Assembly: GCA_964536205.1 (NCBI GenBank)
Contig: CAZHVT010000001.1
Coordinates: forward strand, 69,944 to 133,943
Direction of reading: 5' to 3'
DNA: 64,000 bases
Source: an uncultured Gammaproteobacteria bacterium
GTDB lineage: Bacteria > Patescibacteriota > Patescibacteriia > Magasanikbacterales > GCA-002688135
Under the pieces are notes generated by a model. It ran no database searches. It saw nothing but the letters and a program-made list of their open reading frames with translations, and was not told where the DNA came from. Each line of letters begins with the position of its first letter. The stretch's first letter is position 1. The position numbers and the translations under genes were made by a program. Positions 9,078 through 58,617 of this stretch are shown piece after piece.

Positions 9078-10790
9078 ATGGCATTTGGATTTGGAAAAAA
9101 GAAAGATGAGCCGATGATGACGGATTTAGAGGCTCAACAAAAAGCACTGGAGGAGAAGCGTAAATCTTTGGAAAAAAAAGCTGAATATAAAACTCCTGAG
9201 GAGCAGAGTTTGGGAAATCGGATGTTGAATGCAGTTATGATAAATCGTGGTTGGCGACAAGAGGTAAAACGGCAGGCTGCTGAAGATGAGCTGGATAAAG
9301 TTTCTAAGCAAGAGTCGCTTTTAAAGAAAAAACAGATGCGTAATGAGTTGTTTGAGGATTTGATTGAATTGGGTGGTCAGGCGAATGCAGGGGTTGAAGA
9401 AGCAAATCAGGAATTTCAAAATATTGTTGATAGTATTTCGACGCGGAATGAGGTTGAGGTTGATCAGGAGGCTGTAGCTGCTGCGCAACAGGAGGCAACT
9501 GAAGCATCTGCGGCTGCCACAGAGCAATTGGAAGCAGATTTACATGAGATTTTGGGGGATGAGGTTGAGAGTTATAAAGTTGATGTGATTGATGATGAAC
9601 CTGCGGATACGTATGAAGTTGATATGGAAGGCGAGGTTGGTGATTACACCCCAGAAGCTATTGCAGAGAAAACGGTTGAGGGTTTGAAGAATGCACATTC
9701 AATTAATGCGGTTATGGATGTCATTCGTAAGTATGATGGTATTACGAATGAGGCTGGCAAATATTATTCTGTTGCTGATGTTCAGGAAGCAATAGATAAA
9801 GCAAAAGACAATCCTTCTTTGGGGGATGGTCGATTTATTGATATTACGAGGGCTCATGGATTGCGTGAGAGAGTGAAGGCTGTGATTGATAATCCTGAAT
9901 CGCTTGAAGTTGATATGGGTGATGATGAGGCTGCTCCAGATTCTTTGGATATTGATATGGGTGAGGATGATGAAGTTGAGGCACCTGTGTTGTCCGCTGA
10001 TGAGGCGGCGTTGGCAGAAATTACTGCTGCTGCAGAAGAGGCATTTCCTGATGTGTCTGAAGAAGAAGATGCATTAGCATCGATTGCTGCGACTGCAGAG
10101 GCTGTATTTGGGGATGATGAGGTTGCGTCGGAAAAATCTCCTGAATCTTCTCTTGAAAAGAAAGACCATAAAGATGATTATTTATTATTTGATCGTGCGA
10201 GTGGATTGGTAGCAGTTGGGGAAGTTCCTCCGACAAGTATTAAGATTCCTGGGTGGCGTGCGAAAGTTGATTTTTCTGATAATAAGTCGTTGCGTAGTGC
10301 ACAAGATAATCAAGTGTTTGGAGATTTGGTTATTGATGAGTGGATGGAGACAAGAAAAAGTATAGCGAAAGAACAAGGTATTGATTTGGCTGATGCAAAA
10401 GTTGCGATTGGGGATCGAGCGGCTATGATGGAGCGTGTGAAAAATCGATTTTCAGAAGCGAAGTTGAAGTATCTTAATCGTGAGCGTCCAGAGCCTCAAC
10501 CTGAAGTTGTTGAGTTGGATAGTGAGTTGTTACAAGAATTACCTCCACCAGTTCCAGAATCTGCAAAAGCAATTGAATTGGATAGTGAGTTGCTGCAAGA
10601 ATTACCTCCGCCAGTTCCAGAATCAGTGCAAAATAAGCCTGCAGCTGAAGAAGAAACTGAAGTTGATTTGTTGCGTGAGCCTTCAGTTTCTATTGATCAG
10701 GCATCTTATGAGGTTGATGATGGTTCTGACGAGGAAGAGCCTCCAAAACCTCAAACTGGCGAAAAAGGGTCAACTGAACAAGCTGCATAG
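9078..10790 (+). CDS. Large acidic hypothetical protein with a duplicated ELDSELLQELPPPVPES segment
   Basis: 570 aa, very D/E-rich. Near-identical 17-aa repeat encoded at about 10507-10560 and 10573-10626. No TM segment. Confidence 0.5.
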   Translation: MAFGFGKKKDEPMMTDLEAQQKALEEKRKSLEKKAEYKTPEEQSLGNRMLNAVMINRGWRQEVKRQAAEDELDKVSKQESLLKKKQMRNELFEDLIELGGQANAGVEEANQEFQNIVDSISTRNEVEVDQEAVAAAQQEATEASAAATEQLEADLHEILGDEVESYKVDVIDDEPADTYEVDMEGEVGDYTPEAIAEKTVEGLKNAHSINAVMDVIRKYDGITNEAGKYYSVADVQEAIDKAKDNPSLGDGRFIDITRAHGLRERVKAVIDNPESLEVDMGDDEAAPDSLDIDMGEDDEVEAPVLSADEAALAEITAAAEEAFPDVSEEEDALASIAATAEAVFGDDEVASEKSPESSLEKKDHKDDYLLFDRASGLVAVGEVPPTSIKIPGWRAKVDFSDNKSLRSAQDNQVFGDLVIDEWMETRKSIAKEQGIDLADAKVAIGDRAAMMERVKNRFSEAKLKYLNRERPEPQPEVVELDSELLQELPPPVPESAKAIELDSELLQELPPPVPESVQNKPAAEEETEVDLLREPSVSIDQASYEVDDGSDEEEPPKPQTGEKGSTEQAA

Positions 10791-25262: not shown

Positions 25263-25335
25263 GGTATTAATATTTTAACATGTTGTAACATTCAGACAAC
25301 AAAATATTTGTCAAGTGTATTGCAGCTTCATCTAT

Positions 25336-25947
25336 ATGAAAAAAATATTATTTATAGCGAGTGTTGTTTTGTTGGGAGCTGGATGTGGTGCAGAGGATCC
25401 AAATCCAAAGGTTGATGGTTATGCGCCGTCTGTTGATGAGCCGATTGAGGAAGTGGTTGAGGAGAAGACTGAAGAGGAGAAGGTTGCGCCAGAGATTGCT
25501 CCAGGGAAAGCGTCGACATTAGAAACTGATGATGGTTCTGGTATTCAGAGTTCTAAGGTTACTAAGCCGGTTGTTGAGGATGAGCCTGAAGATGAATCTG
25601 CGGATGAAGAGATTGCGCAGCCTCTGCCTCTTGTTGAGCCTCCGGTCGAACCTGCTGAAATTTCAGCTCCGGTTGTGAAATCATTTAATATTACAGCGAA
25701 GCAATGGGATTTTGTTCCGTCGACTGTTACGGTGAATAAAGGTGATACTGTTCGTATGACATTTACCAGTACTGATGTAACGCATGGTGTGAGTTTGGCG
25801 GCGTTTGGGGTGAATGAAAATTTGGTTCCTGGAAAATCTGTGACAGTTGAATTTGTTGCGGATAAAGCCGGGAATCATTCATTTATTTGTAATGTGTTTT
25901 GTGGGAGTGGACATTCTCATATGAGTGGAACATTGGTGGTTAAATAA
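25336..25947 (+). CDS. Cupredoxin-fold copper-binding lipoprotein with a CuA-like (cytochrome oxidase subunit II / N2OR-like) ligand motif
   Basis: Lipoprotein signal LLGAGCGA. Acidic linker. C-terminal domain with H...FICNVFCGSGHSHM, matching the CuA ligand pattern H-x(n)-C-x(3)-C-x(3)-H-x(2)-M. Confidence 0.6.
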   Translation: MKKILFIASVVLLGAGCGAEDPNPKVDGYAPSVDEPIEEVVEEKTEEEKVAPEIAPGKASTLETDDGSGIQSSKVTKPVVEDEPEDESADEEIAQPLPLVEPPVEPAEISAPVVKSFNITAKQWDFVPSTVTVNKGDTVRMTFTSTDVTHGVSLAAFGVNENLVPGKSVTVEFVADKAGNHSFICNVFCGSGHSHMSGTLVVK

Positions 25948-27505: not shown

Positions 27506-28411
27506 ATGATTAAAAAGGCGATTATTCCTGTTGCAGGGTTTGGGACGCGTTTTTTGCCTGCAACAAAAGCACAACCTAAGGAGATGCTCACGTTGGTTGA
27601 TAAACCGGTGATTCAGCATATTGTTGAAGAGGCTGTAGCTGCTGGGATTGAGCAAATTATTTTTGTGACCAGTTCTACTAAGCGTGCGATTGAAGATCAT
27701 TTTGATCGGAATTTTGAGTTGGAGTACCGGCTGCGCCAGAAGAATCGAAAAAAGGAATTGGGGCAGATTTTGGATATTTCTGATTTGTGTACATTTGCGT
27801 ATGTTCGTCAGCGATCGCCACGTGGGGATGGTCATGCGATTTTGAGTGCGAAAGATTTTATTGGTGATGAGCCTGTTGCGATTTTATTTGGGGATGATGT
27901 GATAGATTCGAATGTTCCGTGCATGAAGCAAATGATTCAGTGTTATGACAAGTTTAAATGTCCGATTATTGGAATCATGGAGGTTGATAAGACACAAACG
28001 GGAAGATTTGGTATAATAGAAGGGTCTCATGTTGATGAGCGAACGCATCAAGTTCGGAGTTTGGTTGAGAAGCCAGCGCCGGAAGTAGCGCCATCTAATT
28101 TGGGAATTATTGGGCGATATATTATTACGCCAGAAGTGTTTGATGCGCTGGAAACTGCAAGTGCTTCTCCTGATGGTGAGATTCGTTTGATCGATGCATT
28201 TCGTGGTCTTGTTGGAACGCGTGCAATTTATGCGCATGAGTTTGAAGGGACACGATACGATTGTGGAAATAAATTAGAATTTATGAAAGCTGCGGTTGAG
28301 ATGGGTGTGCAGCATGCAGAAATTGGCGAGGAGTTTGATAGATATTTAACAGAGCGTATGTCGGCACATACACCAGCTCGAATTTTTGAGATGGATTTGA
28401 ATGCCAATTAA
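27506..28411 (+). CDS. galU: UTP--glucose-1-phosphate uridylyltransferase
   Basis: N-terminal IIPVAGFGTRFLPATKAQPKEMLTLVDKPVIQ (G-x-G-T-R-x-LPxTK motif) and typical GalU length. Confidence 0.85.
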   Translation: MIKKAIIPVAGFGTRFLPATKAQPKEMLTLVDKPVIQHIVEEAVAAGIEQIIFVTSSTKRAIEDHFDRNFELEYRLRQKNRKKELGQILDISDLCTFAYVRQRSPRGDGHAILSAKDFIGDEPVAILFGDDVIDSNVPCMKQMIQCYDKFKCPIIGIMEVDKTQTGRFGIIEGSHVDERTHQVRSLVEKPAPEVAPSNLGIIGRYIITPEVFDALETASASPDGEIRLIDAFRGLVGTRAIYAHEFEGTRYDCGNKLEFMKAAVEMGVQHAEIGEEFDRYLTERMSAHTPARIFEMDLNAN

Positions 28412-28540
28412 AATAAATAACAATTACCAAATAACAATTTACAAACAAATCTAAAATTCAAATCTCAAACTCGACAATCGGACGTTTGGAGTTTGGAATT
28501 TAAGATTTGTTTGGTACTTGAGATTTGGTGATTGAGATTT
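28412..28540. repeat. Family-E AT-rich long palindrome between galU and the solute-binding lipoprotein gene
   Basis: ccaaataacaatttacaaacaaatctaaaattcaaatctcaaactcg ... gtttggaatttaagatttgtttggtacttgagatttgg. Confidence 0.6.
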
Positions 28541-28570
28541 ATAAACGATGTACTAGATAACTTAAAATGT

Positions 28571-29992
28571 ATGGGGAGGAAGACTTTTTTAGGGGTAATT
28601 GCAGTTTGCGTATTTTTAGTATTTGGAGGAGCGGCGTGTAAGAATACAGTCGACCCACAACAAGCCGAATTAACGAAGCGTGTGACATTGGATTATTGGC
28701 GACCGTTTGATGCGAGTGATGCGTTTTCGCCGGTGATTCGAAAGTATCGATCGATTCATCCGAATGTTACGATTAATTATCGTCAGATTCGTCCGGAGAT
28801 TTATGAAGAGGAATTGATTCAGGCTTTTGCGGAAGATCGCGGGCCAGATATTTTTGCAGTTCATAATACATGGATGCGTGGGTATCAGAGTAAATTAGCT
28901 GCAATGCCGCAGAATTATGCAATTTCAAATATTGTTCCTAAGGGAGGCTTAGAGGGGAAGACAGTTACCAATGTTCAGGAGAAGCGTGGTTTGACTCCGC
29001 GGCAATTGCAGGCGCAATTTGTAGATGTAGCACTTGATAATATGTTGTTGCCTTTGGATGGTTCCGGGCGTGAGCCGGATTTGGCGACAAGCGGCGTATA
29101 TGGTGTTCCGCTTTCGGTAGATACGATGATGATGTTTTACAATAATGATTTGGTGAAAACAGCTGGGGTTGCGCAGCCTCCTACAACGTGGGTTGGGTTT
29201 CAGTCTGCATTGGAAAAAGTTACAGCAGTTGAGAAAGGCACCTTAAGATTGATTCGTCCTGGGGCTGTGATTGGTACGGCGGAGAATGTTCCGCGCGCAA
29301 GTGATTTGTTGGCGCTTATTATGATGCAAGCGGGCGCTCAAATGGTGGATGATTTTGGTTTTGCATCGTTTCATAAAAATCCCCCTGGGCTAGATCGTGC
29401 GACACCTCCAGGAATTGATGCGTTGCGTTATTACATTGATTTTTCAATTCCTCCTCGTAAAGCGTATACATGGAATGCGTTGCAGCCGGATGGACTTGAG
29501 GCATTTATTCGTGGGCAGGTTGCATATATGTTTGGATATTCATATCAGCTGCCATTGATTAAAGCTCGTGCGCCGAAGTTGCCTGTGGGTGTTGCGCCAG
29601 TACCACAACAATTACCAGAGTCACCAATTAATATTGCGAATTTCTGGTTGGAAGGTGTTTCGAAGAAGTCTGAAAGTGCGACATGGGCGTGGGATTTTCT
29701 ATTGTTTCAGTCGAGTGCAGATCATGTGAAGGATTATTTGGATATAACTCAAAAACCTACTGCGTTGCGTGCTTTGATTGATGAGCAACGAGAGGATTTA
29801 TTTTTGGGACCTTTTGCAGAACAGGTTTTGACAGCACGAACATGGTATCGAGGAAAGGATGGGGATACTGCAGATGGAGTTATGCGTGAATTAATTACGC
29901 AGGCGAAGTTGGCGATTGAAGCTGCGAGTGATGCGGAGTTTAATAAGGCTGTGAAAAATGCTGTTTCGAAGATTAACCAAACAGTGCAGTAG
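28571..29992 (+). CDS. Extracellular solute-binding lipoprotein (ABC transporter substrate-binding protein, family 1, sugar-type)
   Basis: Lipoprotein signal (VFLVFGGAACKN). About 470 aa alpha/beta periplasmic-binding-protein-like sequence. No adjacent permease in the window. Confidence 0.55.
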   Translation: MGRKTFLGVIAVCVFLVFGGAACKNTVDPQQAELTKRVTLDYWRPFDASDAFSPVIRKYRSIHPNVTINYRQIRPEIYEEELIQAFAEDRGPDIFAVHNTWMRGYQSKLAAMPQNYAISNIVPKGGLEGKTVTNVQEKRGLTPRQLQAQFVDVALDNMLLPLDGSGREPDLATSGVYGVPLSVDTMMMFYNNDLVKTAGVAQPPTTWVGFQSALEKVTAVEKGTLRLIRPGAVIGTAENVPRASDLLALIMMQAGAQMVDDFGFASFHKNPPGLDRATPPGIDALRYYIDFSIPPRKAYTWNALQPDGLEAFIRGQVAYMFGYSYQLPLIKARAPKLPVGVAPVPQQLPESPINIANFWLEGVSKKSESATWAWDFLLFQSSADHVKDYLDITQKPTALRALIDEQREDLFLGPFAEQVLTARTWYRGKDGDTADGVMRELITQAKLAIEAASDAEFNKAVKNAVSKINQTVQ

Positions 29993-30171
29993 TGAGTTGA
30001 GCGACTTCCATTTTGGGTGATATATGCTCGCTTCACAAAACGTTTATTCGTCGTACGTTCAGTACGACTCACTGCACGTTTTGTTCCAGCAGTGCATATC
30101 TCATCCCAAACTGAAAGTCTTCACATCTGTGGAATAACTAATATATTATGTTAAGGAGGATGAAAGTATTA

Positions 30172-30588
30172 ATGGCGATGATTCCGATGATGTTCGGGTT
30201 GTTTGTGTTTGTACCGCAAGCGGTTGATGCGCAGGTTTTGTTTAAGATGCCTGATTGTGCGACCACGAAAGATGTGAAGAAGGCTGGAAATTGTCAGTTG
30301 AATGATGCAGTGAATACATTAATCGCAGTGGCTGAATTTATTTTTGGAATTTCTGGATCGTTGGCGTTGTTGATGTTTATGTATGGAGGATTTACATGGG
30401 TGACGTCTGGAGGACATGAACAGCGTATTTCAAAAGGAAAAGATATTGTCCGTAATGCTGTTGTTGGTTTGATCATTGTATTTATGTCTGCTGCTATTGT
30501 TCAGTTTGCATTAATATCGCTGGATGTTGATGGTAGTTTCAATTTCTTGAAAGGAAAAGATGGTGGAAAGGTTGAACAGCAAATATAG
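30172..30588 (+). CDS. TrbC/VirB2-type pilin-like protein, paralog 1 of 9
   Basis: Signal peptide, then C-terminal hydrophobic hairpin with LMFMYGGFTWVTSGGHEQ and a second TM. AAGGAGG RBS upstream. Confidence 0.65.
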   Translation: MAMIPMMFGLFVFVPQAVDAQVLFKMPDCATTKDVKKAGNCQLNDAVNTLIAVAEFIFGISGSLALLMFMYGGFTWVTSGGHEQRISKGKDIVRNAVVGLIIVFMSAAIVQFALISLDVDGSFNFLKGKDGGKVEQQI

Positions 30589-30606
30589 AGGAATAATTAT
30601 TTTTTT

Positions 30607-32091
30607 ATGATGCGAAGGCTTACTACGTATGCTGTTATGTTTGTTGGCCTTTTTTTGTTTTTTGGTGTTGCGGGTGTAAATGCAGCTCCACCGGCTTCGT
30701 ATTATGGGCCTATTAATGCGGCGGGGTGTAAGGCGGATTTAAAGGAGTGTTCTGATGATTTGTCAAGTAAATGTGGTTGGAAAGCACCGGATAATTATTA
30801 TATTGCAGAAAAAGCACTGAGCTCGAATATTTGCGATGATTGGAGTGCGACTGAATGGAAAACCATACACAACTTTTTTGGACCTTGTTATGATTGGCAT
30901 TGGTCGCAATCTACTACGTTTCCATTTGATTCTAGTAAATCTAAATATGGTCATTTAGCAGGAGGCGTAAATACTCCGAAGTGGAAATTTGCGCAGCCAA
31001 CAGATGCTCGACAAAAGCCCGGAGCCGGACCATGGTCAGAGAAGCAGGCGTGTGATCATTTTTTTGGGAACACAAATACAAAGTTTGCGTTATTTTCCGC
31101 GGGAATTACCAAGAATAATTGTGTATCGAAAGCAACGCAATGTAAGGAGTTGTATGAGAAATGCAATTTAACAGGAGGTAAGAATGATTTTAGTGATCCT
31201 CAAAAGTTATGTAATCAAGTGTTGTCAGATGATTCACAGGTTGGAGGTAAATTCACATTGTTTGATCAATGTGCAGATGGTTTGGCAAAGTTGGCTAAGC
31301 CAGTACCGGGAGATCCGTTTTGTAAGCAGGCAGAAAAATTATCTGAAGGTAAAAAGTGTCAGTGTTTGGGTGGTGTGATAGAGGCTAAGTATGGGAATCA
31401 TGGGTTGCAGCCCGGTGATGCGAGTTGTTGTCAGACATGTAAAACGGCAAAAATTAAATTTGATGATAAGGAAGTTTCATGTGCTACTGCTTTGAAAATA
31501 CCTACCTTGAAAGATAATTGTTCTTGTGAGGGTGTGGCTCAAACATATGCATTACAGAAAACTGGAAGTGAATTGAAAAAGCAATGTTGTGGGTTGTGTG
31601 CTTCTCGTGGTTTTGAGAAAAAAGTTTCAAAAGTGAAGTTTGGTTCTGGTGAGGTTGGTGTGTGTGGTGGGTATTCATGTGGTGATGGTAAAACACCGAA
31701 ATTAACTAATCCATCTGCAAATCCTGCGTTATTGAAAAAACAATTGTGTAAGGCATGTACATCAGAAGAAGTTGTTTTGAATGGTTCGAAAGAGAAGTGT
31801 GCTCGTGTTATTACGGTGAATCCTATTAAGGCGTATCCGGATCCACTGGCTGCTTCGGGGGTTAATAACCCGCAAAAGTTTATTGCGAATTTAATTAAAA
31901 CATTCTTGGGAATTATTGGATCGATTGCGTTGGCGCTTGTGGTGTATGGTGGATTTATTTGGATGACGTCTGCTGGTGAGACCGCACGTGTAGAAACAGG
32001 ACGCAAAACTGTTCAGTGGGCAGCATTTGGTCTTGTTGCTGTATTTAGTTCATATGTTATTGTTGCATTTATTTTTAAATCGTTGGGTTAA
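30607..32091 (+). CDS. Large cysteine-rich secreted protein (494 aa) fused to a C-terminal TrbC/VirB2-type pilin-like domain, paralog 2
   Basis: Signal peptide (MMRRLTTYAVMFVGLFLFFGVAGVNA), about 400-aa ectodomain with more than 30 Cys, and C-terminus FIANLIKTFLGIIGSIALALVVYGGFIWMTSAGETARVETGRKTVQWAAFGLVAVF. Confidence 0.65.
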   Translation: MMRRLTTYAVMFVGLFLFFGVAGVNAAPPASYYGPINAAGCKADLKECSDDLSSKCGWKAPDNYYIAEKALSSNICDDWSATEWKTIHNFFGPCYDWHWSQSTTFPFDSSKSKYGHLAGGVNTPKWKFAQPTDARQKPGAGPWSEKQACDHFFGNTNTKFALFSAGITKNNCVSKATQCKELYEKCNLTGGKNDFSDPQKLCNQVLSDDSQVGGKFTLFDQCADGLAKLAKPVPGDPFCKQAEKLSEGKKCQCLGGVIEAKYGNHGLQPGDASCCQTCKTAKIKFDDKEVSCATALKIPTLKDNCSCEGVAQTYALQKTGSELKKQCCGLCASRGFEKKVSKVKFGSGEVGVCGGYSCGDGKTPKLTNPSANPALLKKQLCKACTSEEVVLNGSKEKCARVITVNPIKAYPDPLAASGVNNPQKFIANLIKTFLGIIGSIALALVVYGGFIWMTSAGETARVETGRKTVQWAAFGLVAVFSSYVIVAFIFKSLG

Positions 32092-34291
32092 GTTTTTAGC
32101 TGCTTTCTCGATTGTGTATGCGGCGCTTTTTGGGTTGGTTGGGGGTGTTAGTGCTGATCCTGTGGTTGAGACTGATCCTAATACAACGGTAAAAGTTGAT
32201 TCTTGTTGCCTGTATTTTCAGTCTGTTCCAAGCTCAGCATGTTTTGCTACGAATTTGCCGTATACGTTAAATACTAAAGGCTATGTTAAGAGTGGAAAGC
32301 AGGCATTTCCCTGTAAACAGTCTGGTGACGATTTGGTTTTAGGTGTAGATGTTCCTGTTAATTTTGTGGGAGCATACCAAACATCTGATAAATCATGTTT
32401 AAGTACGATTTCGTATTCTTCAGACTTTGCTTCTTTGGATGATCAACAATATTTGTTGGAATTGTCTGGTGGCAAGAAAACAAACGATCTTGATGTAAAA
32501 ATTGAGATTAGTAGCTGGTGTGAAACTGGCATGAACCTTCATAATAAGAGCACGTATGTTCCGAATTTTTCAAAAGAGTTAAGTCAGGCTATTGTAAAAG
32601 CGAAGGAAGATGAGAAGGCTGCGGCTGATGCAAGCAAGCCTTGGGTTGTGTTGCAATCTCAGGAGGCTGCTTTTAATAAAGAGTTTAAGGGGTGTTGTAC
32701 GTATTACGAAGGTTCTGGTCCTTCTAATCAATGTGTCACAATTAAAGATTTATTAAAAAATGGTTCGAATGCAAAAAAGTTTGATTGTAAGACATATAAG
32801 GATAAGATGGTTAATTTTAATTTGCAGATAGTTCCTCATAATTTTTTAGGTGGATATCCAACAAAAGAAAATATCAAAGATGGCCCAAACTGTAACCCGT
32901 TTACAAATTCAGGAGCTACTTTGAATTATACTAAGTATGACACCCAGCAAAAAACTGATTTTTCTTTTAAAAAAGACATTGATACTTCAGAGTTTTGTGT
33001 GACTGCATTTGATGTGATGGGTCAGACAAAGTTGTTTGATTATTTTCAGGGTGAGGAGAAGAAGACTGAAGGAGTTTTGCCGGCAATGGAAAAGCTGGTG
33101 AAGGATTATTTTGATAGTAAGAAAAAGAAATTTTGTTGCATTCCTTCAAAGAAGTCTGCAGATACTGCGTGTCATGTGCCATTGTATAACGATGCTGATA
33201 TAAAGAAGTTGGCCGAAATGTTTGCGGGTACGAAAGCTTCTGATTCTAGTTTTGATGCGAAATCGGTTTTAGATATTTGGTGGAATGATACCGCAGGTGA
33301 TAAATATAAGGCTGGTACGGTTTTTGCATCGAACTTTTTTTCCTGCACTCCAAAAAATACCGTGATCAATACGGACACGGGCGCTGGTTTTAAACCGATT
33401 GATAAGAAGGTTTCTGTAACGGATTTTTGGATGCTCACGCAAGATTGTAAGTCTACTACCATACTCCCTGTTACAGATGCGTGGGGGAATGATGTGAAGC
33501 CGTGTAATGATGGTGATCAGAGTTGTTTGGATTCATATGCAAAAAAGTATCCGAGTGGGATGAGTGGTTTGACTGCGGCGAAGCGTTGCGCTGCTCCTAA
33601 TTTGTTTTGTCTTTGTAATAGTAAAGATTGTGTCGATACAATTTATCTTAGTAAGGTGAAGATAACTGGTGCAGAAAAGGATAGCAAGTCATGCGATGAG
33701 GCTGCAAAAACCGCGGAGCCATCTGAAGGTTGGAAGTGTAAAAAAACGACGCATGATAGCATTGTTGATCCAAGTAAGACTGCTGCGGATGGTACGAAAG
33801 GAGTTGAGTCTTGTTGTATGTTGTCGCCGGATAAAAAATGTAAAAATACCTTTACAACGAAGTTGGATAAGTTTGAGTGTGGGGATGGGAAAAAGGTCCC
33901 TATTGTTACGCCCGCTATTCAAGAACAGGTTTTGTTGAAACAGGTGTGTACTGCATGTCAGACAAAGACAGTGAAGCTGAAAGATGGAGAGAAGGATTGT
34001 ACTGTTGTTACAGAATTGCCAGATATTGGGGCATTCCCCAATCCTTTGGGGCAATCGGGGATTAATAATCCGCAATCGTTTATTGCGAATTTAATTAAAA
34101 CGTTTTTGGGGATTCTTGGTTCGATTGCGCTAGCATTGGTTGTGTATGGTGGATTTACATGGATGACATCTGCTGGCATACCTGAACGTGTGGAAGCTGG
34201 TCGCAAAACTGTTCAGTGGGCAGCGTTTGGTTTGGTGGCTGTGTTTGCTTCCTATACTTTGGTGAAATTTATTTTTGATGCGCTTGGATAA
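32054..34291 (+). CDS. Very large cysteine-rich secreted protein (about 745 aa) fused to a C-terminal TrbC/VirB2-type pilin-like domain, paralog 3
   Basis: C-terminal 90 aa nearly identical to paralog 2 (FIANLIKTFLGILGSIALALVVYGGFTWMTSAGIPERVEAGRKTVQWAAFGLVAVF). More than 40 Cys in the ectodomain. The start is uncertain (ATG at 32054, or an upstream TTG overlapping the paralog 2 stop). Confidence 0.6.
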   Translation: MLLLHLFLNRWVKFLAAFSIVYAALFGLVGGVSADPVVETDPNTTVKVDSCCLYFQSVPSSACFATNLPYTLNTKGYVKSGKQAFPCKQSGDDLVLGVDVPVNFVGAYQTSDKSCLSTISYSSDFASLDDQQYLLELSGGKKTNDLDVKIEISSWCETGMNLHNKSTYVPNFSKELSQAIVKAKEDEKAAADASKPWVVLQSQEAAFNKEFKGCCTYYEGSGPSNQCVTIKDLLKNGSNAKKFDCKTYKDKMVNFNLQIVPHNFLGGYPTKENIKDGPNCNPFTNSGATLNYTKYDTQQKTDFSFKKDIDTSEFCVTAFDVMGQTKLFDYFQGEEKKTEGVLPAMEKLVKDYFDSKKKKFCCIPSKKSADTACHVPLYNDADIKKLAEMFAGTKASDSSFDAKSVLDIWWNDTAGDKYKAGTVFASNFFSCTPKNTVINTDTGAGFKPIDKKVSVTDFWMLTQDCKSTTILPVTDAWGNDVKPCNDGDQSCLDSYAKKYPSGMSGLTAAKRCAAPNLFCLCNSKDCVDTIYLSKVKITGAEKDSKSCDEAAKTAEPSEGWKCKKTTHDSIVDPSKTAADGTKGVESCCMLSPDKKCKNTFTTKLDKFECGDGKKVPIVTPAIQEQVLLKQVCTACQTKTVKLKDGEKDCTVVTELPDIGAFPNPLGQSGINNPQSFIANLIKTFLGILGSIALALVVYGGFTWMTSAGIPERVEAGRKTVQWAAFGLVAVFASYTLVKFIFDALG

Positions 34292-34336
34292 TGTTGTGTG
34301 GATGTCTATTTCAGATAATTTTGCTATAATACAGAC

Positions 34337-34900
34337 ATGATTATGAGGAGAGTTTTACTATTTTTGCTTGTCGTGTTTTGCGTATTTGGTGTTTTTGAAT
34401 ATGTTGATGCTGCGACGCTTAAGGAATGTGAATCTGCTCAAGCTTTGTGTATCGATAATGCTGCTGCAAAATGTTTGGTTGATGTTGCGTGTATATCCAG
34501 TGAAACTGCTTTGTGTGGTGGGCAATTTTTAAAATGTAAGGAATCTGTTGAGGGAGCTTCATCTGAAGGTAGTTCTGGTGAGAGCGAAAAAGCATCTTCT
34601 GGTACGGATTTAGTTAATCCGTTAGGTGGAAAACCAGGATCAGCTGAATCTGCAAAGGGCATCACTAGTGTGCAGTCATTGGTTGGTAAAATTATTGCGA
34701 TTGCTTTGGGATTCTTGGGATCATTGGCCTTATTATTTTTCATTTATGGTGGATTTTTGTGGATGACTTCTCGTGGTAAACCTGAAATAATTACCAAAGG
34801 TACGAAGACGATGTTGTGGGCTGCGATTGGAATTTTCTTTGTCTTCTCAAGTTATTCGATATTGATTTTTATCTTGAATGCGATTGGGGCGAAGGTTTGA
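34337..34900 (+). CDS. TrbC/VirB2-type pilin-like protein, paralog 4
   Basis: Signal peptide, Cys-containing N-region, C-terminus LFFIYGGFLWMTSRGKPE plus a second TM. Confidence 0.65.
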   Translation: MIMRRVLLFLLVVFCVFGVFEYVDAATLKECESAQALCIDNAAAKCLVDVACISSETALCGGQFLKCKESVEGASSEGSSGESEKASSGTDLVNPLGGKPGSAESAKGITSVQSLVGKIIAIALGFLGSLALLFFIYGGFLWMTSRGKPEIITKGTKTMLWAAIGIFFVFSSYSILIFILNAIGAKV

Positions 34901-35077
34901 TGAATATTTGTGAGGGTTGATTTAGTCATTCTTCACAAGTAATTATTTACTTGATAACCCCGGCTTGTCGTTGGGATAATATCCTTTAAAAGGTCGAAGA
35001 CATGTGGAATCGTGTGCTGCAGCTTTCTGTACAGGTACACGACTATACATTCGGGTAGAAATTAAATTATAGACTTT

Positions 35078-35494
35078 ATGAATACATTTATGCGAAGAGC
35101 TATGGTAGCAGGTGCTACTGTGGCTATGTCAGCAGGAATGATGCTGCCTCATATGGTTGGCGCTGCTCCTACTGCTGCAGAAAAGGAAAAAGAATTGTTT
35201 CAAGGATTGACAGGTGAAAATGTTGCAGGAAATCTTGGTCAATCAAACCAAAATTTGACTGTGACAGTCGCTAAGTTGATCCGAAATTTCCTTGGATTGC
35301 TTGGTATTCTTGCTGTTATCATCGTGGTGATTGGTGGTTTTGAATGGATGACTGCAGGAGGAAACACAGAAGGTGTTGATAATGCAAAGAAACGAATTTT
35401 GCAGGGTGTTATTGGTATGGCTATTGTGCTGTCGGCGTTTGCCATAGCGCAGTTTGTCATCGGCGCTCTGACGAAATCCACTACTGCTGGATAG
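35078..35494 (+). CDS. TrbC/VirB2-type pilin-like protein, paralog 5
   Basis: Signal peptide. C-terminus IIVVIGGFEWMTAGGNTEG plus a second TM. Confidence 0.65.
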   Translation: MNTFMRRAMVAGATVAMSAGMMLPHMVGAAPTAAEKEKELFQGLTGENVAGNLGQSNQNLTVTVAKLIRNFLGLLGILAVIIVVIGGFEWMTAGGNTEGVDNAKKRILQGVIGMAIVLSAFAIAQFVIGALTKSTTAG

Positions 35495-35555
35495 CGGTGT
35501 TGGAACATATCATGTATAATAAGAGTAGTGTTAATCGCTACTCTTATTTGTTTAT

Positions 35556-36107
35556 ATGGTTTCAGTGACTTTTAGAAGAGATTATTTTATTGTCGGGTTG
35601 TCCCTGTTATTTTTGGGATTTTTGTTTGTTGCGCAGCCTGCGTATGCTGGGAAATGTGAGGATGTTTTGCAGACATGTAAGGAGAGCGCAACAGCTGGTT
35701 GTGCGGATAGTCCTGATTTAAATTGTGTTGAGAAAGCAGAGGCTGCGTGTACTGCTTCTTTGGATATATGTAAGCAAGCCGAAGCATCTGCTGCGCAAAA
35801 AGATACTGATGAAGGGTCGACGTCAAATGATTATGGGCTAAAAGAAACAGCTGATGCCGCTGACTTACCAAATACTGATACAAATGTTGCTGGTTTAGTT
35901 GGAAAAATTATTCAAGCTGCGTTATCATTAGTTGCGACAATATTCTTTTTCTTGATGGTATATGGTGGATTCTTGTGGATGACAGCTCGGGGAAATTCAG
36001 ATCAAATAGGAAAAGCGAAAGATTTAATTACACAGGCAATTGTTGGTGTGGTGGTTATTTCTGCGGCGTGGGCGATTACCAATTTTGTTATAAGTAGGAT
36101 AGGATAG
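35556..36107 (+). CDS. TrbC/VirB2-type pilin-like protein, paralog 6
   Basis: Signal peptide, Cys-rich N-region (six Cys), C-terminus FFFLMVYGGFLWMTARGNSDQ plus a second TM. Confidence 0.65.
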   Translation: MVSVTFRRDYFIVGLSLLFLGFLFVAQPAYAGKCEDVLQTCKESATAGCADSPDLNCVEKAEAACTASLDICKQAEASAAQKDTDEGSTSNDYGLKETADAADLPNTDTNVAGLVGKIIQAALSLVATIFFFLMVYGGFLWMTARGNSDQIGKAKDLITQAIVGVVVISAAWAITNFVISRIG

Positions 36108-36112
36108 TTTGT

Positions 36113-36517
36113 ATGATGAGAACAATAACGTTTTCTATTATTGCGAGTTTGTTTTTGGTGTTGCCTATGGCAGCGCAAGATAAGCCATCTCCTGTTGATA
36201 CTACTCCTGAAGCTGCGTCTGGGAAGTATGGATTGGATGCGACGGTTGGTGCTGCTGCACAAGAAGGAGTTCCTATTCCAAATACAGACAAAAAAGCAAC
36301 TGGAATTATTGGTAGTGTGCTTGGTGGAGTTTTATCAATGATTGGAACGATATATTTCTTTCTGATGTTATATGCTGGATTTACGTGGATGACTGCACGA
36401 GGTAAGAGTGAATTGATTGATAAATCTAAGAACATTATGATTCATGCAACGGTTGGTGCGGTGTTGGTTGCTGGGTCGTTTGTGATTGTGAAGTTTGTGA
36501 TTGATGCGCTGGGTTAG
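36113..36517 (+). CDS. TrbC/VirB2-type pilin-like protein, paralog 7
   Basis: Signal peptide. C-terminus YFFLMLYAGFTWMTARGKSEL plus a second TM. Confidence 0.65.
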   Translation: MMRTITFSIIASLFLVLPMAAQDKPSPVDTTPEAASGKYGLDATVGAAAQEGVPIPNTDKKATGIIGSVLGGVLSMIGTIYFFLMLYAGFTWMTARGKSELIDKSKNIMIHATVGAVLVAGSFVIVKFVIDALG

Positions 36518-36585
36518 CGTAATGCGTAAAGCGTAAAGCGTAAGTGGTTTCCCGCATTACGCATTACGTTTTACTCTTTACTAAC
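36518..36585. repeat. Family-B-like short palindrome (gcgtaatgcgtaaagcgtaaagcgtaag...cattacgcattacg) between pilin paralogs 7 and 8
   Basis: Shares the taaagcgtaa word with the other family-B copies. Confidence 0.5.
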
Positions 36586-36589
36586 ATAT

Positions 36590-36991
36590 ATGACATTATC
36601 GATAACCAAAAAACAGGTGGGAGCTTTTTTTGTGTGTTTGATGCTTTCGGGTATGCTTTTTGCGCCTCGGCTTACGCAGGCAAAGCTTGGTTTGGATGAG
36701 GCTAAGAATGCAGCAGATAAATCTGGTGGTTTTAATACGAATGAAGAGGAGGCTGGCGTTGCTGCTATTGCAGGAAAGATCATTCAAGCGCTTATTAGTT
36801 TGCTTGGAATTATATTTATTGGTTTGACGGTGTATGCAGGATTTTTGTGGATGACAGCTCGTGGAGAGACTGAACAGGTTGATCGATCTAAGAAAATGTT
36901 GACTCAAGGGGTGATTGGGATGGCGATTATGTTGGCTGCGTGGGCGATTACTAATTTTGTGTTAAGTCGGTTGATTGATGCAACCGGATAA
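36590..36991 (+). CDS. TrbC/VirB2-type pilin-like protein, paralog 8
   Basis: Signal peptide. C-terminus FIGLTVYAGFLWMTARGETEQ plus a second TM. Confidence 0.65.
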   Translation: MTLSITKKQVGAFFVCLMLSGMLFAPRLTQAKLGLDEAKNAADKSGGFNTNEEEAGVAAIAGKIIQALISLLGIIFIGLTVYAGFLWMTARGETEQVDRSKKMLTQGVIGMAIMLAAWAITNFVLSRLIDATG

Positions 36992-36995
36992 TTAT

Positions 36996-37430
36996 ATGAA
37001 GAAATTTTTATTTTCGTTTTTAGTGGGTGGTTTGATTCTTGCGCCAGGTGCTGTTTTTGCAGAAGAGCCAGAATGTCCGACAGGACAAGAAGGTCATGCG
37101 GCACAACTTTTGCTCAATAAAGCCGGATGTGAGGGTGGGTATAACACAAATCCGGAGGAGTCGAGCTTAACAGTGATTATTGCAAAGATGATTCGAAATG
37201 TATTTGCATTGCTTGGGATTTTAATGGTTGTGTATACGGTGTGGGCTGGATTTAAATGGATGACTGCTGCTGGAGATTCTGGTCAGGTTGATGAAGCAAA
37301 GAACATGCTGAAGAATGCTGTGATTGGGATGGCGATTATGTTGATGGCCTTTTCGATTGCGCAGTTTGTTGTGGGAAGTTTATCGAAATCGGTTAGCTCG
37401 AGTGGTGAGGTTGAAGCTGGTCAGCAGTAA
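36996..37430 (+). CDS. TrbC/VirB2-type pilin-like protein, paralog 9
   Basis: Signal peptide (MKKFLFSFLVGGLILAPGAVFA). C-terminus MVVYTVWAGFKWMTAAGDSGQ plus a second TM. Hairpin terminator about 37448-37485 follows. Confidence 0.65.
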   Translation: MKKFLFSFLVGGLILAPGAVFAEEPECPTGQEGHAAQLLLNKAGCEGGYNTNPEESSLTVIIAKMIRNVFALLGILMVVYTVWAGFKWMTAAGDSGQVDEAKNMLKNAVIGMAIMLMAFSIAQFVVGSLSKSVSSSGEVEAGQQ

Positions 37431-37521: not shown

Positions 37522-38214
37522 TTACCAACTGAACCGATCGAAACCGATTGATCGGTGTGGCCCGCGTGATCGCACGCGTCGTGGGCCGTACTTTTGGGTG
37601 GACTTACTAAGCACAGTGACCTGGCCGTTGTAAGCATTGATGGCATATTGCACCGCGTTAACGCGAATGCTGCCACCAAATCTTGTTGGCACCGTCCAGC
37701 ATGTTTCACCTGGCGGTAACAAACCCATTCCGTTGTACGTGGGGACTCCTCCAGGAAGGAGATGTCCTGTATCCACTTGTTCACCGATCACGACCAGCGA
37801 CTTCCCGTTGAGACGCAGTCCGATTGGACTACGCATTCCGTTTCTGATCGCAACCGTTTGAAACACGGGAACTCGTGACGGACGATCGAGAAAGCAAGGA
37901 AGTCTTTTCGCGGCAGCCGTTGTGACTCGCCGCGGCTGTTGCACGTTGCTGGTGCGAGGCGATGCCTTTCGTGAACGTTTGACTCGACGAGTCGTGCGCT
38001 TACGTTGGCGTGGTTTTTCCGGAGCTGCTTGTGGAGCAACTTGCGGAGCTGGCTTTGGACGATTTGCATCATCTGCCAGACGTCCGAAGTTTACCAACTC
38101 ATTTGCGAGCTGCCGATCGATCGTGCTGTTAGTTGCACGCTCTTGTTTTAGGTTGCCCTGGTTAGAGGCGCAACCCATTGTCATTGCTGTCAGAACAAAA
38201 ATGAACCGTTGCAT
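37522..38214 (-). CDS. Hypothetical lipoprotein with a basic, Pro-rich disordered linker. Encoded in a GC-rich island.
   Basis: Lipobox LTAMTMGCAS. Local GC about 58% versus about 43% flanking. No recognisable catalytic motif. Confidence 0.45.
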   Translation of the reverse strand: MQRFIFVLTAMTMGCASNQGNLKQERATNSTIDRQLANELVNFGRLADDANRPKPAPQVAPQAAPEKPRQRKRTTRRVKRSRKASPRTSNVQQPRRVTTAAAKRLPCFLDRPSRVPVFQTVAIRNGMRSPIGLRLNGKSLVVIGEQVDTGHLLPGGVPTYNGMGLLPPGETCWTVPTRFGGSIRVNAVQYAINAYNGQVTVLSKSTQKYGPRRVRSRGPHRSIGFDRFSW

Positions 38215-38224
38215 GGATTCTCCT

Positions 38225-38626
38225 CTAGTAGTTGTAGTAGCTTCCGTCGTTGAGCGTGTGAGGTGGTGGGGTGAATTGCCCCGCTCCCCATCCGTTCATT
38301 CCGACGTAGCCGCCGTATCCCAGGTTTGCTTGTTGAATGGCGAGTACGCAATCCGCATCGCCTTTGCGCAAACAATCGGCTAGAAGTTCTTGTCGCTGCA
38401 GCGCCGACATGGCGAAGATGCGACGAATTTCCAGATTTCCGAGTGCTCGCTCGCGACGCGTCTCTGCGTCAGTTGCGATTGCGTGAGCGCGCGCTGTTCG
38501 AATCGGTGACTCGAAAAAGCGACCCTCATACGAATAACCTTTCCCCTCCACTTTCGCGTGAGAGAAACAACCCATCCCGACGCCTGAAAGCGCGAGAATC
38601 AGAATCATTGAACTTACTCTGTACAT
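38225..38626 (-). CDS. Hypothetical lipoprotein (133 aa), GC-rich island
   Basis: Lipobox LALSGVGMGC. Same compositional anomaly as the neighbouring gene. Possibly co-transcribed with it. Confidence 0.45.
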   Translation of the reverse strand: MYRVSSMILILALSGVGMGCFSHAKVEGKGYSYEGRFFESPIRTARAHAIATDAETRRERALGNLEIRRIFAMSALQRQELLADCLRKGDADCVLAIQQANLGYGGYVGMNGWGAGQFTPPPHTLNDGSYYNY

Positions 38627-55348: not shown

Positions 55349-56299
55349 ATGCCAGATAGTCAGCTTTTGAAAACAATGAAACAGTTTTTGGATTATCTTG
55401 AGGTTGAGAAAAATCGGAGTGTTTTGACGCGGCGGAATTATGCTTTGTATTTGAGGAGGTTTATGAAGTTCTCAAAGTTATCGAAAACTTCGCAGATCAC
55501 AAAGGATGATGTAAGGAAATTTCGGATGTGGTTGCATCGGAAGAAAACTGCGAAAGGAAAAACATTGTCGCCGTCGACACAGAATTATCATTTGATTGCG
55601 TTGCGGAGTTTTTTGGGATATTGCGCGAAGATGGATATCCGCGCGCTTGCACCGGAAAAAGTTGAGTTAGCGAAGATTGCAGATCGTCAGGTGAATTTTA
55701 TGGAAGGTTCTGATGTGATGCGATTGTTGCGAGCGCCGTTACAAGGGGATGTGAATATTGTGAATTTGCGTGATGCCGCGATTTTGGAATTATTGTTTTC
55801 GACTGGTTTGCGAGTTTCAGAATTGGTTGGTTTGAAAAAGGAAGATATTAATTTGAAGCGAGATGATTTTACGGTTCGTGGAAAGGGTCGGAAGATGCGG
55901 ATTGTGTTTTTGTCGGATCGATCGAAAAAGGCGATTTTGAAATATTTGAAAAAGCGCGAGGATTTGAATCCGTATTTATTTGTGTCGCATGATCCGGCGA
56001 AAAAGAAACGCCATGCACCACGTGGGGTGCATGGTGGGCGCGATGTTGGTTTATCGCCGCGGACTATTCAGCGGATTGTTGATCGATATGCTAAGGAGGC
56101 GGGGATTACGCGCAAGATTTCTCCGCATGCTTTGCGACATTCATTTGCGACCGATCTCTTGCGTAATGGCGCGGATTTGCGTAGTGTACAGGCATTGTTA
56201 GGGCATTCTTCGATTACGACGACGCAGGTTTATACGCATGTTTCGGATAAGCATCTTAAAGAAGTCCACAAACGTTTTCATGACAAAAAAGACACATAA
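55349..56299 (+). CDS. Site-specific tyrosine recombinase, XerC/XerD family
   Basis: N-terminal core-binding domain. Catalytic domain with R...HxxR...Y (ISPHALRHSFATDLLRNGADLRSVQALLGHSSITTTQVYTHV). Ends 13 bp before tRNA-Arg. Confidence 0.8.
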   Translation: MPDSQLLKTMKQFLDYLEVEKNRSVLTRRNYALYLRRFMKFSKLSKTSQITKDDVRKFRMWLHRKKTAKGKTLSPSTQNYHLIALRSFLGYCAKMDIRALAPEKVELAKIADRQVNFMEGSDVMRLLRAPLQGDVNIVNLRDAAILELLFSTGLRVSELVGLKKEDINLKRDDFTVRGKGRKMRIVFLSDRSKKAILKYLKKREDLNPYLFVSHDPAKKKRHAPRGVHGGRDVGLSPRTIQRIVDRYAKEAGITRKISPHALRHSFATDLLRNGADLRSVQALLGHSSITTTQVYTHVSDKHLKEVHKRFHDKKDT

Positions 56300-56311
56300 G
56301 AACGCATGTTT

Positions 56312-56383
56312 GCCCCTGTAGTTCAATGGATAGAACGCGAGCCTTCTAAGCTCGATATGTAAGTTCGATTCTTACCGGGGGTA
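56312..56383 (+). tRNA. tRNA-Arg (anticodon TCT)
   Basis: Manual fold: acceptor gcccctg/cgggggt (two G-U), D-arm gttc-aatggata-gaac, anticodon arm cgagc-cttctaa-gctcg, T-arm gtaag-ttcgatt-cttac, discriminator A. Coordinates +/-1. Confidence 0.75.
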
Positions 56384-56386
56384 TAG

Positions 56387-57058
56387 ATGTGTTCTTTTAA
56401 AGGAATTATGAAATTACAATTTGAATACGACATCGATATGGATGTCAAAAATATCATGAAGGGGAAGCGGTCGGTGAATAATAAAAAACCGACTCGATTT
56501 CAGAATTTGATTGCCGATGAGTGCGGTGAGGATTTTGATGATGAGGATGCGAAAATTTTTATAAAGAAATATGTAGAGAATGATGATGTAGATGTTTCTT
56601 CGGAGATAGATCGATTTGAAAAAGAATGGAAACGTGTTGAATCGGATTTTACAGAGCGTGTTGAGAAGATGTTTGGTATGTCATATCCGTCGCCTGTTGT
56701 TACGGTATATCTGTCACATAATCAGCGTAGTACCTATAATATTGCGGAAGATTATTTTTTTGTGATGATTGGTTCTCAGATTTCCAATCAAGTTGTGATG
56801 CATGAGTTGCTGCATTTTTATACATGGCATGCATTTGGAAAGAAGTTTATTGATGATGGGCTTTCAAAGTCTCGATATAATGAAGTGAAGGAGTCGCTGA
56901 CAGAATTACTTAATGTTGAGTTTTCAGATTTGATGGATGGGGAGATTGATAAGGGTTATCCGCAACATACGGTCATGCGAGAGAAAGTTCGAGAGATGTG
57001 GCTGGAGAAAAAGGATGTTAGAAGTGTTTTTGATTTTTTAGTAAGCAGTAATGTATGA
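56387..57058 (+). CDS. Hypothetical protein with an HExxH motif (VMHELLHFYTWHAF), a possible metallopeptidase-like fold
   Basis: 223-aa ORF starting 4 nt after the tRNA. Its stop overlaps the epimerase start (ATGA). Only the short zinc-binding-like motif is recognisable. Confidence 0.35.
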   Translation: MCSFKGIMKLQFEYDIDMDVKNIMKGKRSVNNKKPTRFQNLIADECGEDFDDEDAKIFIKKYVENDDVDVSSEIDRFEKEWKRVESDFTERVEKMFGMSYPSPVVTVYLSHNQRSTYNIAEDYFFVMIGSQISNQVVMHELLHFYTWHAFGKKFIDDGLSKSRYNEVKESLTELLNVEFSDLMDGEIDKGYPQHTVMREKVREMWLEKKDVRSVFDFLVSSNV

Positions 57059-58146: not shown

Positions 58147-58617
58147 ATGCCTAGAAGGCTAGCATCACTTTTTCCATACAAGCCTGGTTACATTTGCCGT
58201 CGGGTCAATACTTTGCTTGGAACGACGTTTGAGTTTGAGGTTCCTGCTGAGCACATGCGGAAACGTGAGTCGGGTTGGATATTGGAAATTGCATGCATCA
58301 ACAAGAACAATAAAGTTCTCGGTTGTACAACGGGGTTGTCATTCAATGCTACTCATGGTGAGCCTGGAGTTCCGATCAGCATTTCCGAGAGACACAGCAT
58401 CACGATTACTTGTGCGACAGATGAGGATTTGCAGGATTTGCTTCGTCGAATGAAGAATGCGCCGGAAGGTTCATTTCCGGCTTCGCCAATCAGTACGAGG
58501 AATCGCATAACTCTTGCAGAATGGATGCAGTTGATTCGAGAGGAGGATTCCTTTTATGCTGGCATTCATCGCAGCGAGCTCGATCGTCTGAATCGACTTC
58601 TTGAAGAAGTGCTTTAG
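58147..58617 (+). CDS. Hypothetical protein (156 aa), module-type gene
   Basis: Family-C palindrome, then TATTGACA-17-TAGATT promoter (about 58080-58110), AAAGGAG RBS. Bidirectional terminator 58622-58648 downstream. Elevated GC. No motif. Confidence 0.4.
   Translation: MPRRLASLFPYKPGYICRRVNTLLGTTFEFEVPAEHMRKRESGWILEIACINKNNKVLGCTTGLSFNATHGEPGVPISISERHSITITCATDEDLQDLLRRMKNAPEGSFPASPISTRNRITLAEWMQLIREEDSFYAGIHRSELDRLNRLLEEVL

Follow-up and report, generated by a model that had tools for sequence, protein, structure and literature searches.

Tandem arrays of pilin genes related to virB2 of type IV secretion systems (T4SS) have been described from many Patescibacteria. A search of 3,035 genomes with the families PF18895 and PF04956 yielded 441 VirB2 arrays of 2-11 genes each in 383 Patescibacteria assemblies (Quinonero-Coronel et al., Microb Genom 2025, PMC12102498). 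The arrays are most abundant in Microgenomatia and Saccharimonadia, and the maximum identity between copies is 54%. A pilin gene is located near virB4 in only 1,135 of 1,948 assemblies; in about 40%, the two are apart (PMC12102498). In Southlakia epibionticum, the pilin series SEML1_0006-0019 lies inside a T4SS cluster and is essential for epibiotic growth according to transposon sequencing (Tn-seq) (Wang et al., Cell 2023, PMC10633639). This T4SS has no recognisable relaxase or coupling protein (PMC10633639; PMC12857230). In TM7x, predicted virB2 rises during stable symbiosis. Few gene sets have been shown to be required for epibiotic life in a cultivated Patescibacterium, and VirB2-like arrays belong to them. 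The locus analysed here comprises nine pilin-like genes, p1 to p9, all on the + strand of a stretch of 64,000 nucleotides (nt) from contig CAZHVT010000001.1. This whole stretch is called the window, and coordinates are window positions (1-64,000).

With very high confidence, the nine-gene locus is a PF18895 pilin array. Published arrays were defined by at least two PF18895/PF04956 genes in tandem or one non-pilin gene apart (PMC12102498), and the window holds nine consecutive PF18895-type genes in a Patescibacteria genome. A preliminary description of the window had called the array striking. That judgement is overstated, as arrays of this sort occur frequently in Patescibacteria and have been published, also for the type located apart from virB4 (PMC12102498).

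Nine pilin genes with a common hairpin module

An open reading frame (ORF) scan found nine co-directional + ORFs at 30148-37430, exactly where the preliminary description had placed them. The same nine genes are called on the public copies of the contig, with only some start codons shifted. All nine proteins begin with an N-terminal hydrophobic segment closing with a small-x-small site (VDA, VNA, VSA, VDA, VGA, AYA, MAA, TQA, VFA), and these N-termini are predicted to be ordinary Sec-type signal peptides. Two hydrophobic stretches resembling transmembrane (TM) segments lie close to the C-terminus in each of the nine. The C-terminal two-helix modules of approximately 70-75 amino acids (aa) are alignable without large gaps across the whole set, with G30, F31, W33, T35, G38, G56 and F69 invariant (pattern ...GF.W.T..G...G...F). 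Pairwise module identity averages about 34% and reaches its maximum of 77% between p2 and p3. A hidden Markov model (HMM) of the nine modules, run against the six-frame translation of the window, matched only these nine ORFs (E 1e-31 to 1e-36; next best 0.39). The value for p7 is E 9e-32, with p7 itself among the training sequences; its module is 46% identical to that of p6, aligned in register. ORFs, gene calls, alignment and HMM thus agree with the initial account of nine co-directional paralogs with a signal peptide and a C-terminal two-helix module. An AlphaFold2 model of p9 from a 96-sequence alignment is an alpha-hairpin (H58-89 and H95-135) with a predicted local distance difference test (pLDDT) score of 87-95 at residues 61-130. 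For p2, the alignment held 6 sequences, and with a pLDDT of 54 the prediction is unusable as a model.

PF18895 (T4SS_pilin; gathering cut-off 26.6 bits, profile of about 71 residues) is passed by eight of the nine proteins with 26.7-42.4 bits over profile positions 2-71; p7 falls short at 16.1 bits. The assignment agrees with the precomputed annotations on public contigs. PF04956 (TrbC/VirB2; cut-off 27.9 bits) gave in-register sub-threshold matches in five proteins, namely p5 (19.5 bits), p2 (18.0), p4 (16.6), p1 (14.1) and p7 (13.7), and no match in the remaining four. The equivalog model NF045849 (cut-off 40 bits), which describes the Mbov_0395 family of pilin-like conjugal transfer proteins from integrative and conjugative elements (ICEs) of Mycoplasma, aligned in register with eight of the nine over positions 7-79 of 80. 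These matches reach 19.4-36.8 bits (E 2e-9 to 6e-4), all under the cut-off, and p1 has none. By these scores, the paralogs are relatives of the NF045849 proteins and not equivalogs. A profile-profile comparison (hhalign) of 96 small CPR (candidate phyla radiation) pilins with seven annotated VirB2/TrbC genes from conjugative plasmids gave a probability of 86.3% and an E-value of 4.8e-6 over 65 columns covering both helices. The motif GGF.WMT of the CPR proteins is paired with GISWMFG of Agrobacterium VirB2, and the CPR loop is approximately 7 residues longer. The profile evidence shows the hairpin to be a remote homolog of the conjugative pilins VirB2/TrbC. The VirB2/TrbC type proposed at the outset is upheld on PF18895 and hhalign, with PF04956 contributing sub-threshold matches only. 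The module profile found no match among the sequences of solved structures. An identity as type IV pilin (PilA/ComGC type) was considered and rejected: no N_methyl or type IV pilin match appeared at E ≤ 0.1 in any of the nine proteins (Pfam), and the signal peptides are of the Sec type and not of class III.

The N-terminal regions had been described as all different. They are variable overall, yet the final 139 aa of p2 and p3, in which the cysteine-containing stalk ahead of the module is included, are 61% identical. The corresponding 3' parts of both genes have identical DNA stretches of up to 24 nt (31871-31897 / 34071-34097; 32009-32023 / 34209-34223) at an overall nucleotide identity of 66%. 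The pattern is consistent with a rather recent duplication or with patchy gene conversion confined to this pair. The protein p4 groups with p2 and p3 (module identity 43-45%).

Start codons and signals were inspected along the array. An AAGGAGG motif precedes the p1 ATG at 30160. Public gene calls start p3 at ATG 32054, giving a 38-nt overlap with the end of p2. For p9, public calls and start-site inspection give 36978 or 36996. Promoter-like sites at 30120-30149 and 34951-34980 are consensus matches only; together with a terminator-like hairpin (Table 1) they hint at possibly up to three transcription units.

Table 1. Features of the pilin array and its conserved upstream neighbours (window positions; scores in bits unless marked E)
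Feature	Position	Strand	Module (nt)	Profile matches	Description
galU	27506-28411	+		TIGR01099 355 (cut-off 326.8); Pfam NTP_transferase	UTP--glucose-1-phosphate uridylyltransferase
SBP (solute-binding protein)	28532-29992 (public call from 28571)	+		SBP_bac_1 E 5e-24; SBP_bac_8 E 6e-20	orphan family-1 solute-binding lipoprotein (SBP_bac_1); lipobox-like FGGAAC
p1	30148-30588	+	30301-30507	PF18895 42.4	146 aa, probably 142 aa from ATG 30160; 2 Cys
p2	30607-32091	+	31861-32073	PF18895 26.7	494 aa; ectodomain of ~390 aa with 28 Cys; Cys stalk
p3	32054-34291 (alternative start 32027)	+	34073-34273	PF18895 30.2	745 aa; ectodomain of ~600 aa with 32 Cys; Cys stalk
p4	34337-34900	+	34667-34861	PF18895 29.9; TrbC 16.6	187 aa; 7 Cys, mostly in short N-terminal segment; Ser/Gly-rich linker
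p5	35078-35494	+	35252-35458	PF18895 35.7; TrbC 19.5; NF045849 34.4	138 aa; small, without Cys
terminator-like hairpin	35518-35548	+			between p5 and p6; 13-bp stem, then T-rich tail; consensus scan only
p6	35556-36107	+	35883-36089	PF18895 32.5; NF045849 27.1	183 aa; N-terminal segment with 6 Cys
p7	36113-36517	+	36308-36499	PF18895 16.1; NF045849 E 6e-4, in register	134 aa; small, most divergent member
p8	36590-36991	+	36758-36961	PF18895 29.6; NF045849 34.4	133 aa; small
p9	36975-37430	+	37161-37370	PF18895 38.2; NF045849 36.8	144-151 aa; small, 2 Cys

Class order, cysteine-rich members and galU linkage in related arrays

A scan of 185,579 species genomes with the four closer modules gave more than 600 pattern matches. 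The best 80 stem from Uhrbacteria, Falkowbacteria, Magasanikbacteria, Buchananbacteria, Veblenbacteria and unnamed Patescibacteria. NCBI places Uhrbacteria in the Patescibacteria group / Parcubacteria group; the named lineages are presumably all members of GTDB class ABY1. The local module HMM was applied to 78 related loci, of which 37 proved to be arrays with 3-14 small pilin genes each. For the array as well as for the SBP and GalU, the closest relatives are found in metagenome-assembled genomes of Patescibacteria, in line with the reduced-genome CPR organism suspected initially. The module family as a whole has 14,067 representatives at E ≤ 1e-3 among 1.84 billion searched.

Each pilin of 33 arrays was assigned to its best-matching window paralog. 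The order is nearly always p1-like, p2/p3/p4-like, p5-like, p6/p7-like and p8/p9-like, with a p1-like gene first in 17 of the 33 arrays, p5-like genes in the middle and a p8-like gene last in 18. Concordant pairs number 800 and discordant pairs 126, giving S=0.73, compared with 0.00 +/- 0.06 (maximum 0.18) in 2,000 within-array shuffles; as the 33 arrays share ancestry, S is an order score and not a probability. Conservation of classes and order implies that the classes predate the split of the lineages and have been kept since. It points to at least five old, presumably differentiated classes instead of interchangeable variants, and the preservation of order across diverged genomes suggests fixed, differentiated roles. 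The notion of interchangeable, alternately expressed subunits in the preliminary description is weakened by this order.

The array proteins of the relatives differ in cysteine content with length: those of at least 250 aa have a median of 14 Cys, those below 180 aa a median of 0. Searches with p2 returned only 3 matches, and its homologs P0003, P0011, P0017 and P0009 keep 12 invariant Cys. A single full-length homolog of p3 (P0002, 758 aa, 33% identity) was found among the 1.84 billion representatives. The N-terminal 635 aa of p3 as query returned nothing, not even p3 itself, and this search is uninformative. The second class (p2-p4-like) thus bears predicted disulfide-rich ectodomains, which are expanded in the present array to approximately 390 and 600 aa.

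The galU and SBP genes upstream of p1 belong to the conserved surroundings of the family. Among the 29 related array loci having enough upstream DNA for this check, a galU homolog (42-63% identity) in the same orientation precedes the array or stands among its initial genes in 26. In 27 of the 29, an SBP homolog (32-47% identity) immediately precedes the array or is embedded in it; it stands between pilin genes in L031, L038, L059, L070, L073, L075 and L081. None of eight other window genes tested is conserved at related array loci. Pfam scans revealed no ABC (ATP-binding cassette) permease in the window that would accompany the SBP. The galU-SBP linkage, the class order, the fusions with Cys-rich ectodomains and the giant-protein fusions treated below were not found described in the published accounts of arrays consulted.

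Giant relatives and chromosomal surroundings

The same module occurs in much larger proteins. About 40 related loci are gene pairs, in which an ORF of 480-920 aa is accompanied by a far larger partner of up to approximately 3,470 aa; some are cut by contig ends. The paired large proteins have the T4SS_pilin module at the N-terminus, at residues ~45-125 (e.g. L012:7095-9752, L012:9851-16528; L025:9839-19813). In one scanned pair (L012), it is followed by the immunoglobulin (Ig)-like domains TIG, Big_5 and fn3. The flanks of two pairs were scanned; both have a QueA-HisRS-RelA context and no T4SS genes. An array and a giant pair coexist in one genome in three cases (L052/L056, L055/L076, L065/L085). 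Seven tandem T4SS_pilin modules in one chain are present in P0010, a protein of 606 aa from outside the window, and several other representatives have 2-4 modules per protein. Concatenated hairpins would fit a topology with both ends outside, yet would be unexpected for a polymerising pilin.

Pfam scans of the sizeable ORFs of the window detected no VirB4, VirB6, VirB10, VirD4, relaxase or related family. A single ATPase of the FtsK/SpoIIIE type is present, namely a complete FtsK that comprises the 4TM, alpha and gamma domains. Gene calls with precomputed Pfam annotation on longer public contigs extend the negative result to 10 kb upstream and approximately 9 kb downstream of the window, where no T4SS family is present. 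The lack of recognisable VirB4, VirB6, VirB10 and VirD4 genes asserted at the start is thereby borne out and reaches beyond both ends. Among 3,035 Patescibacteria assemblies, 2,417 were found to have VirB4 (PMC12102498), so that absence from the window does not imply absence from the genome. From the literature, a chromosomal T4SS cluster of this class would be expected next to comF, recG and radA.

The flanks are chromosomal. They encode an H+-pyrophosphatase, ribosomal protein S6, single-stranded DNA-binding protein (SSB), elongation factor P (EF-P), tRNA synthetases, RecA, FtsK, RNase HII, CorA and MgtE, and further rpoB/rpoC, YebC, RuvC, polynucleotide phosphorylase (PNPase), alanine racemase and two tRNAs. 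The GC content of the array, 0.39-0.44, is like that of its neighbours. The window is contained in three independent assemblies: JGI 3300009375 Ga0118721_1000030 (159 kb) and the ENA assemblies SUTE22-1 (scaffold_16) and SCRA20-1 (scaffold_19), the latter two with scaffolds of 198-211 kb. These are identical over 21 kb, except for an N-run with duplicated sequence in p3, which is a scaffolding artefact, and one 13-nt indel. The latter is a deletion of 36990-37002 at the p8/p9 junction in SCRA20-1 scaffold_19 (L009), by which the p9 ATG at 36996 is lost and the end of p8 is altered; it may reflect an error of assembly or a genuine frameshift variant. The neighbour-like GC content and the identity in three assemblies indicate that the array locus is native and stable. 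The comparison gave no usable signal of diversifying selection.

Several other genes of the window were inspected. Directly downstream of the array, two lipoprotein-like ORFs on the - strand (37522-38214 and 38225-38626) have the N-termini ...MTMGC and ...GMGC and a GC content of 0.54 versus 0.39-0.44 in all neighbours. Neither reached the threshold of any Pfam or NCBIfam family, and the 78 related loci lack homologs of both. The two resemble a foreign insertion, though they are present in all public assemblies of the contig. Two + ORFs at 3900-6077 and 9078-10790 encode highly charged proteins of 725 and 570 aa with 1 and 0 Cys, respectively, and are called as genes publicly. No TM segment and no Pfam or NCBIfam match was found in either; lacking TM segments and being highly charged, they are unlike T4SS parts. 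A XerC/D-type tyrosine recombinase gene is located at 55349-56299 (+), followed after 12 nt by a tRNA gene (56312-56383, +). This gene may represent an ordinary xerC, or it may mark the border of an integrated element. The ORFs beyond, 56387-57058 and 58147-58617, had no family match. A cupredoxin/COX2-like protein is encoded at 25315-25947 (+) (Cupredoxin_1 E 3e-11, COX2 E 9e-9). This lineage is generally said to lack a respiratory chain.

Proposed assembly, alternatives and known systems

VirB2 is a hairpin of the cytoplasmic membrane whose two ends face outwards and whose loop faces inwards. By analogy, the array proteins would adopt this arrangement after cleavage of the signal peptide. 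With both ends outside, either end could bear an extracellular domain, which would explain both the fusions with a C-terminal module (p2, p3) and the giants with an N-terminal one. The small classes (p5-p9) may make up the body of a surface structure with several kinds of subunit, for which a short pilus or sheath dependent on a T4SS is most likely. Its assembly would be performed by a VirB4/VirB6/VirB3-type machinery encoded elsewhere on the chromosome, as in most Patescibacteria. The Cys-rich members (p2-p4, perhaps p1 and p6) would act as minor or tip subunits displaying binding domains towards the host cell. The function would be host attachment or exchange rather than conjugation; the role in DNA uptake considered in the preliminary description is unsupported. 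About an even chance is given to this mechanism, in which a distal T4SS builds a filament whose minor subunits bear adhesins.

Several observations weigh against this filament. No gene for a T4SS ATPase or channel was found across the ~84 kb around the array, and neither VirB4 nor another such gene near 10 related loci, where 20 large neighbour ORFs scanned are housekeeping, sensor or adhesin-like. The cut-offs of PF04956 and NF045849 are missed by every paralog, and fold searches are unable to separate the hairpin from thousands of unrelated helical hairpins. The presumed link to a T4SS draws on homology and on literature from another class, Saccharimonadia. To our knowledge, no pilus of these proteins has been seen in any Patescibacterium. 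The SBP/GalU linkage, the giant Ig-domain proteins and P0010 would fit a membrane anchor or complex equally well.

The strongest alternative, somewhat doubtful but possible, is a membrane display independent of any T4SS. The hairpin would serve as anchor or oligomerisation unit of a heteromeric complex that forms no filament, and the Cys-rich domains together with the SBP could constitute, for instance, a receptor or uptake site for host compounds. The conservation of SBP (27 of 29 loci) and GalU (26 of 29) next to or within the array, with no other conserved neighbour, argues for it, as do the lack of an ABC permease in the window, the lack of T4SS genes near arrays or giant pairs of the clade in the sample checked, the occurrence of the module as an anchor at the N-terminus of proteins that have TIG, Big_5 and fn3 domains and a length of 600-3,470 aa, and the seven modules in the single chain of P0010. 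However, homologs of the module include polymerising conjugative pilins and a conjugal-transfer protein of an ICE, and in Southlakia the homologous array is part of a T4SS cluster, where it is as essential as the remaining T4SS genes. Conserved synteny alone is no proof of physical interaction, and we know of no precedent for an SBP partnering hairpin proteins with two TM segments. In an extended and clearly unlikely version, galU, the SBP and the five hairpin classes would be one conserved module building a new surface organelle. This heteromeric, VirB2-derived structure would carry disulfide-rich binding domains and a docked SBP, and would capture or import host material, possibly without a canonical T4SS. 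The VirB2 hairpin would then be a general anchor and display unit, heading the giant Ig-domain proteins as well.

A variation cassette, in which interchangeable pilin versions would be alternately expressed or shuffled and so vary the surface for host range or evasion, appears very unlikely. The idea has been proposed for the VirB2 paralogs of Bartonella and Anaplasma and raised for Patescibacteria (PMC12102498), and it would suit the high divergence of the modules, the variable N-terminal regions and the apparently more recent duplication of p2 and p3 (with their 24-nt identical run). Classes and order are nevertheless kept even where the SBP and GalU of the genomes compared have no more than 32-63% identity, which indicates old and maintained divergence, not ongoing diversification. 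In addition, three assemblies of different samples have the same array sequence, barring the scaffolding gap and the 13-nt indel, and no inversion sites, silent cassettes or switching repeats were noticed, although no dedicated repeat search was run. A conjugative or integrative mobile element encoding a DNA-transfer pilus, to which the homology with conjugative pilins and the tyrosine recombinase beside a tRNA 18 kb downstream might point, is extremely improbable and was rejected on context and composition: relaxase, coupling protein and VirB4 are absent from the window, the flanks are housekeeping genes (galU, rpoB/C, recA, ftsK), array and neighbours have the same GC content, related chromosomes share the galU-SBP-array block, and relaxases are rare in Patescibacteria, with 109 homologues in 103 genomes (PMC12102498).

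The present locus leaves the published picture of such arrays unchanged and adds three testable points for a large uncultivated clade. Fixed, ordered classes suggest major and minor subunits rather than variants. The conserved disulfide-rich ectodomains of some classes are candidates for binding the host. The genetic linkage of the array is to GalU and an orphan SBP rather than to virB4. These points narrow the choice of subunits to model, to express or to seek in cryo-electron tomography and metaproteomes.

Among known systems, VirB2/TrbC of Proteobacteria (PF04956, e.g. Agrobacterium VirB2) share the signal peptide, two hydrophobic helices with a short loop, and a G-x-x-W-M motif closing helix 1, and the profile-profile match extends over both helices. 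Differences are the Pfam scores of 13.7-19.5 bits against the required 27.9, the loop, which is approximately 7 residues longer and of mixed charge, the N-terminal extensions of ~30 to ~600 aa, the lack of adjacent virB1/virB3 and the monoderm host. The Mbov_0395 family (NF045849) has a similar two-helix module of 80 residues, and its Mycoplasma source represents T4SS-type elements of monoderm, genome-reduced bacteria; unlike these, the present locus is chromosomal, multi-copy and off any ICE. Bartonella and Anaplasma likewise have several divergent virB2 genes side by side in a host-associated bacterium. Theirs belong to diderm pathogens, are located in or beside virB operons and presumably provide antigenic variation, whereas the classes of the present array are anciently fixed in order.

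The patescibacterial arrays are the closest counterpart. Like them, the locus consists of tandem, co-directional, divergent chromosomal PF18895 genes of a CPR organism; its nine genes fall within the range of 2-11, identity is low, and no relaxase is nearby. In contrast to the Southlakia array, it lies outside a T4SS cluster. It also differs from published arrays in its lineage, which is of the Uhr-/Falkow-/Magasanikbacteria type, and in the p2/p3 module identity of 77%, which exceeds the reported 54%. The array is of a kind already published, and the present locus is a further example of the type located away from virB4.

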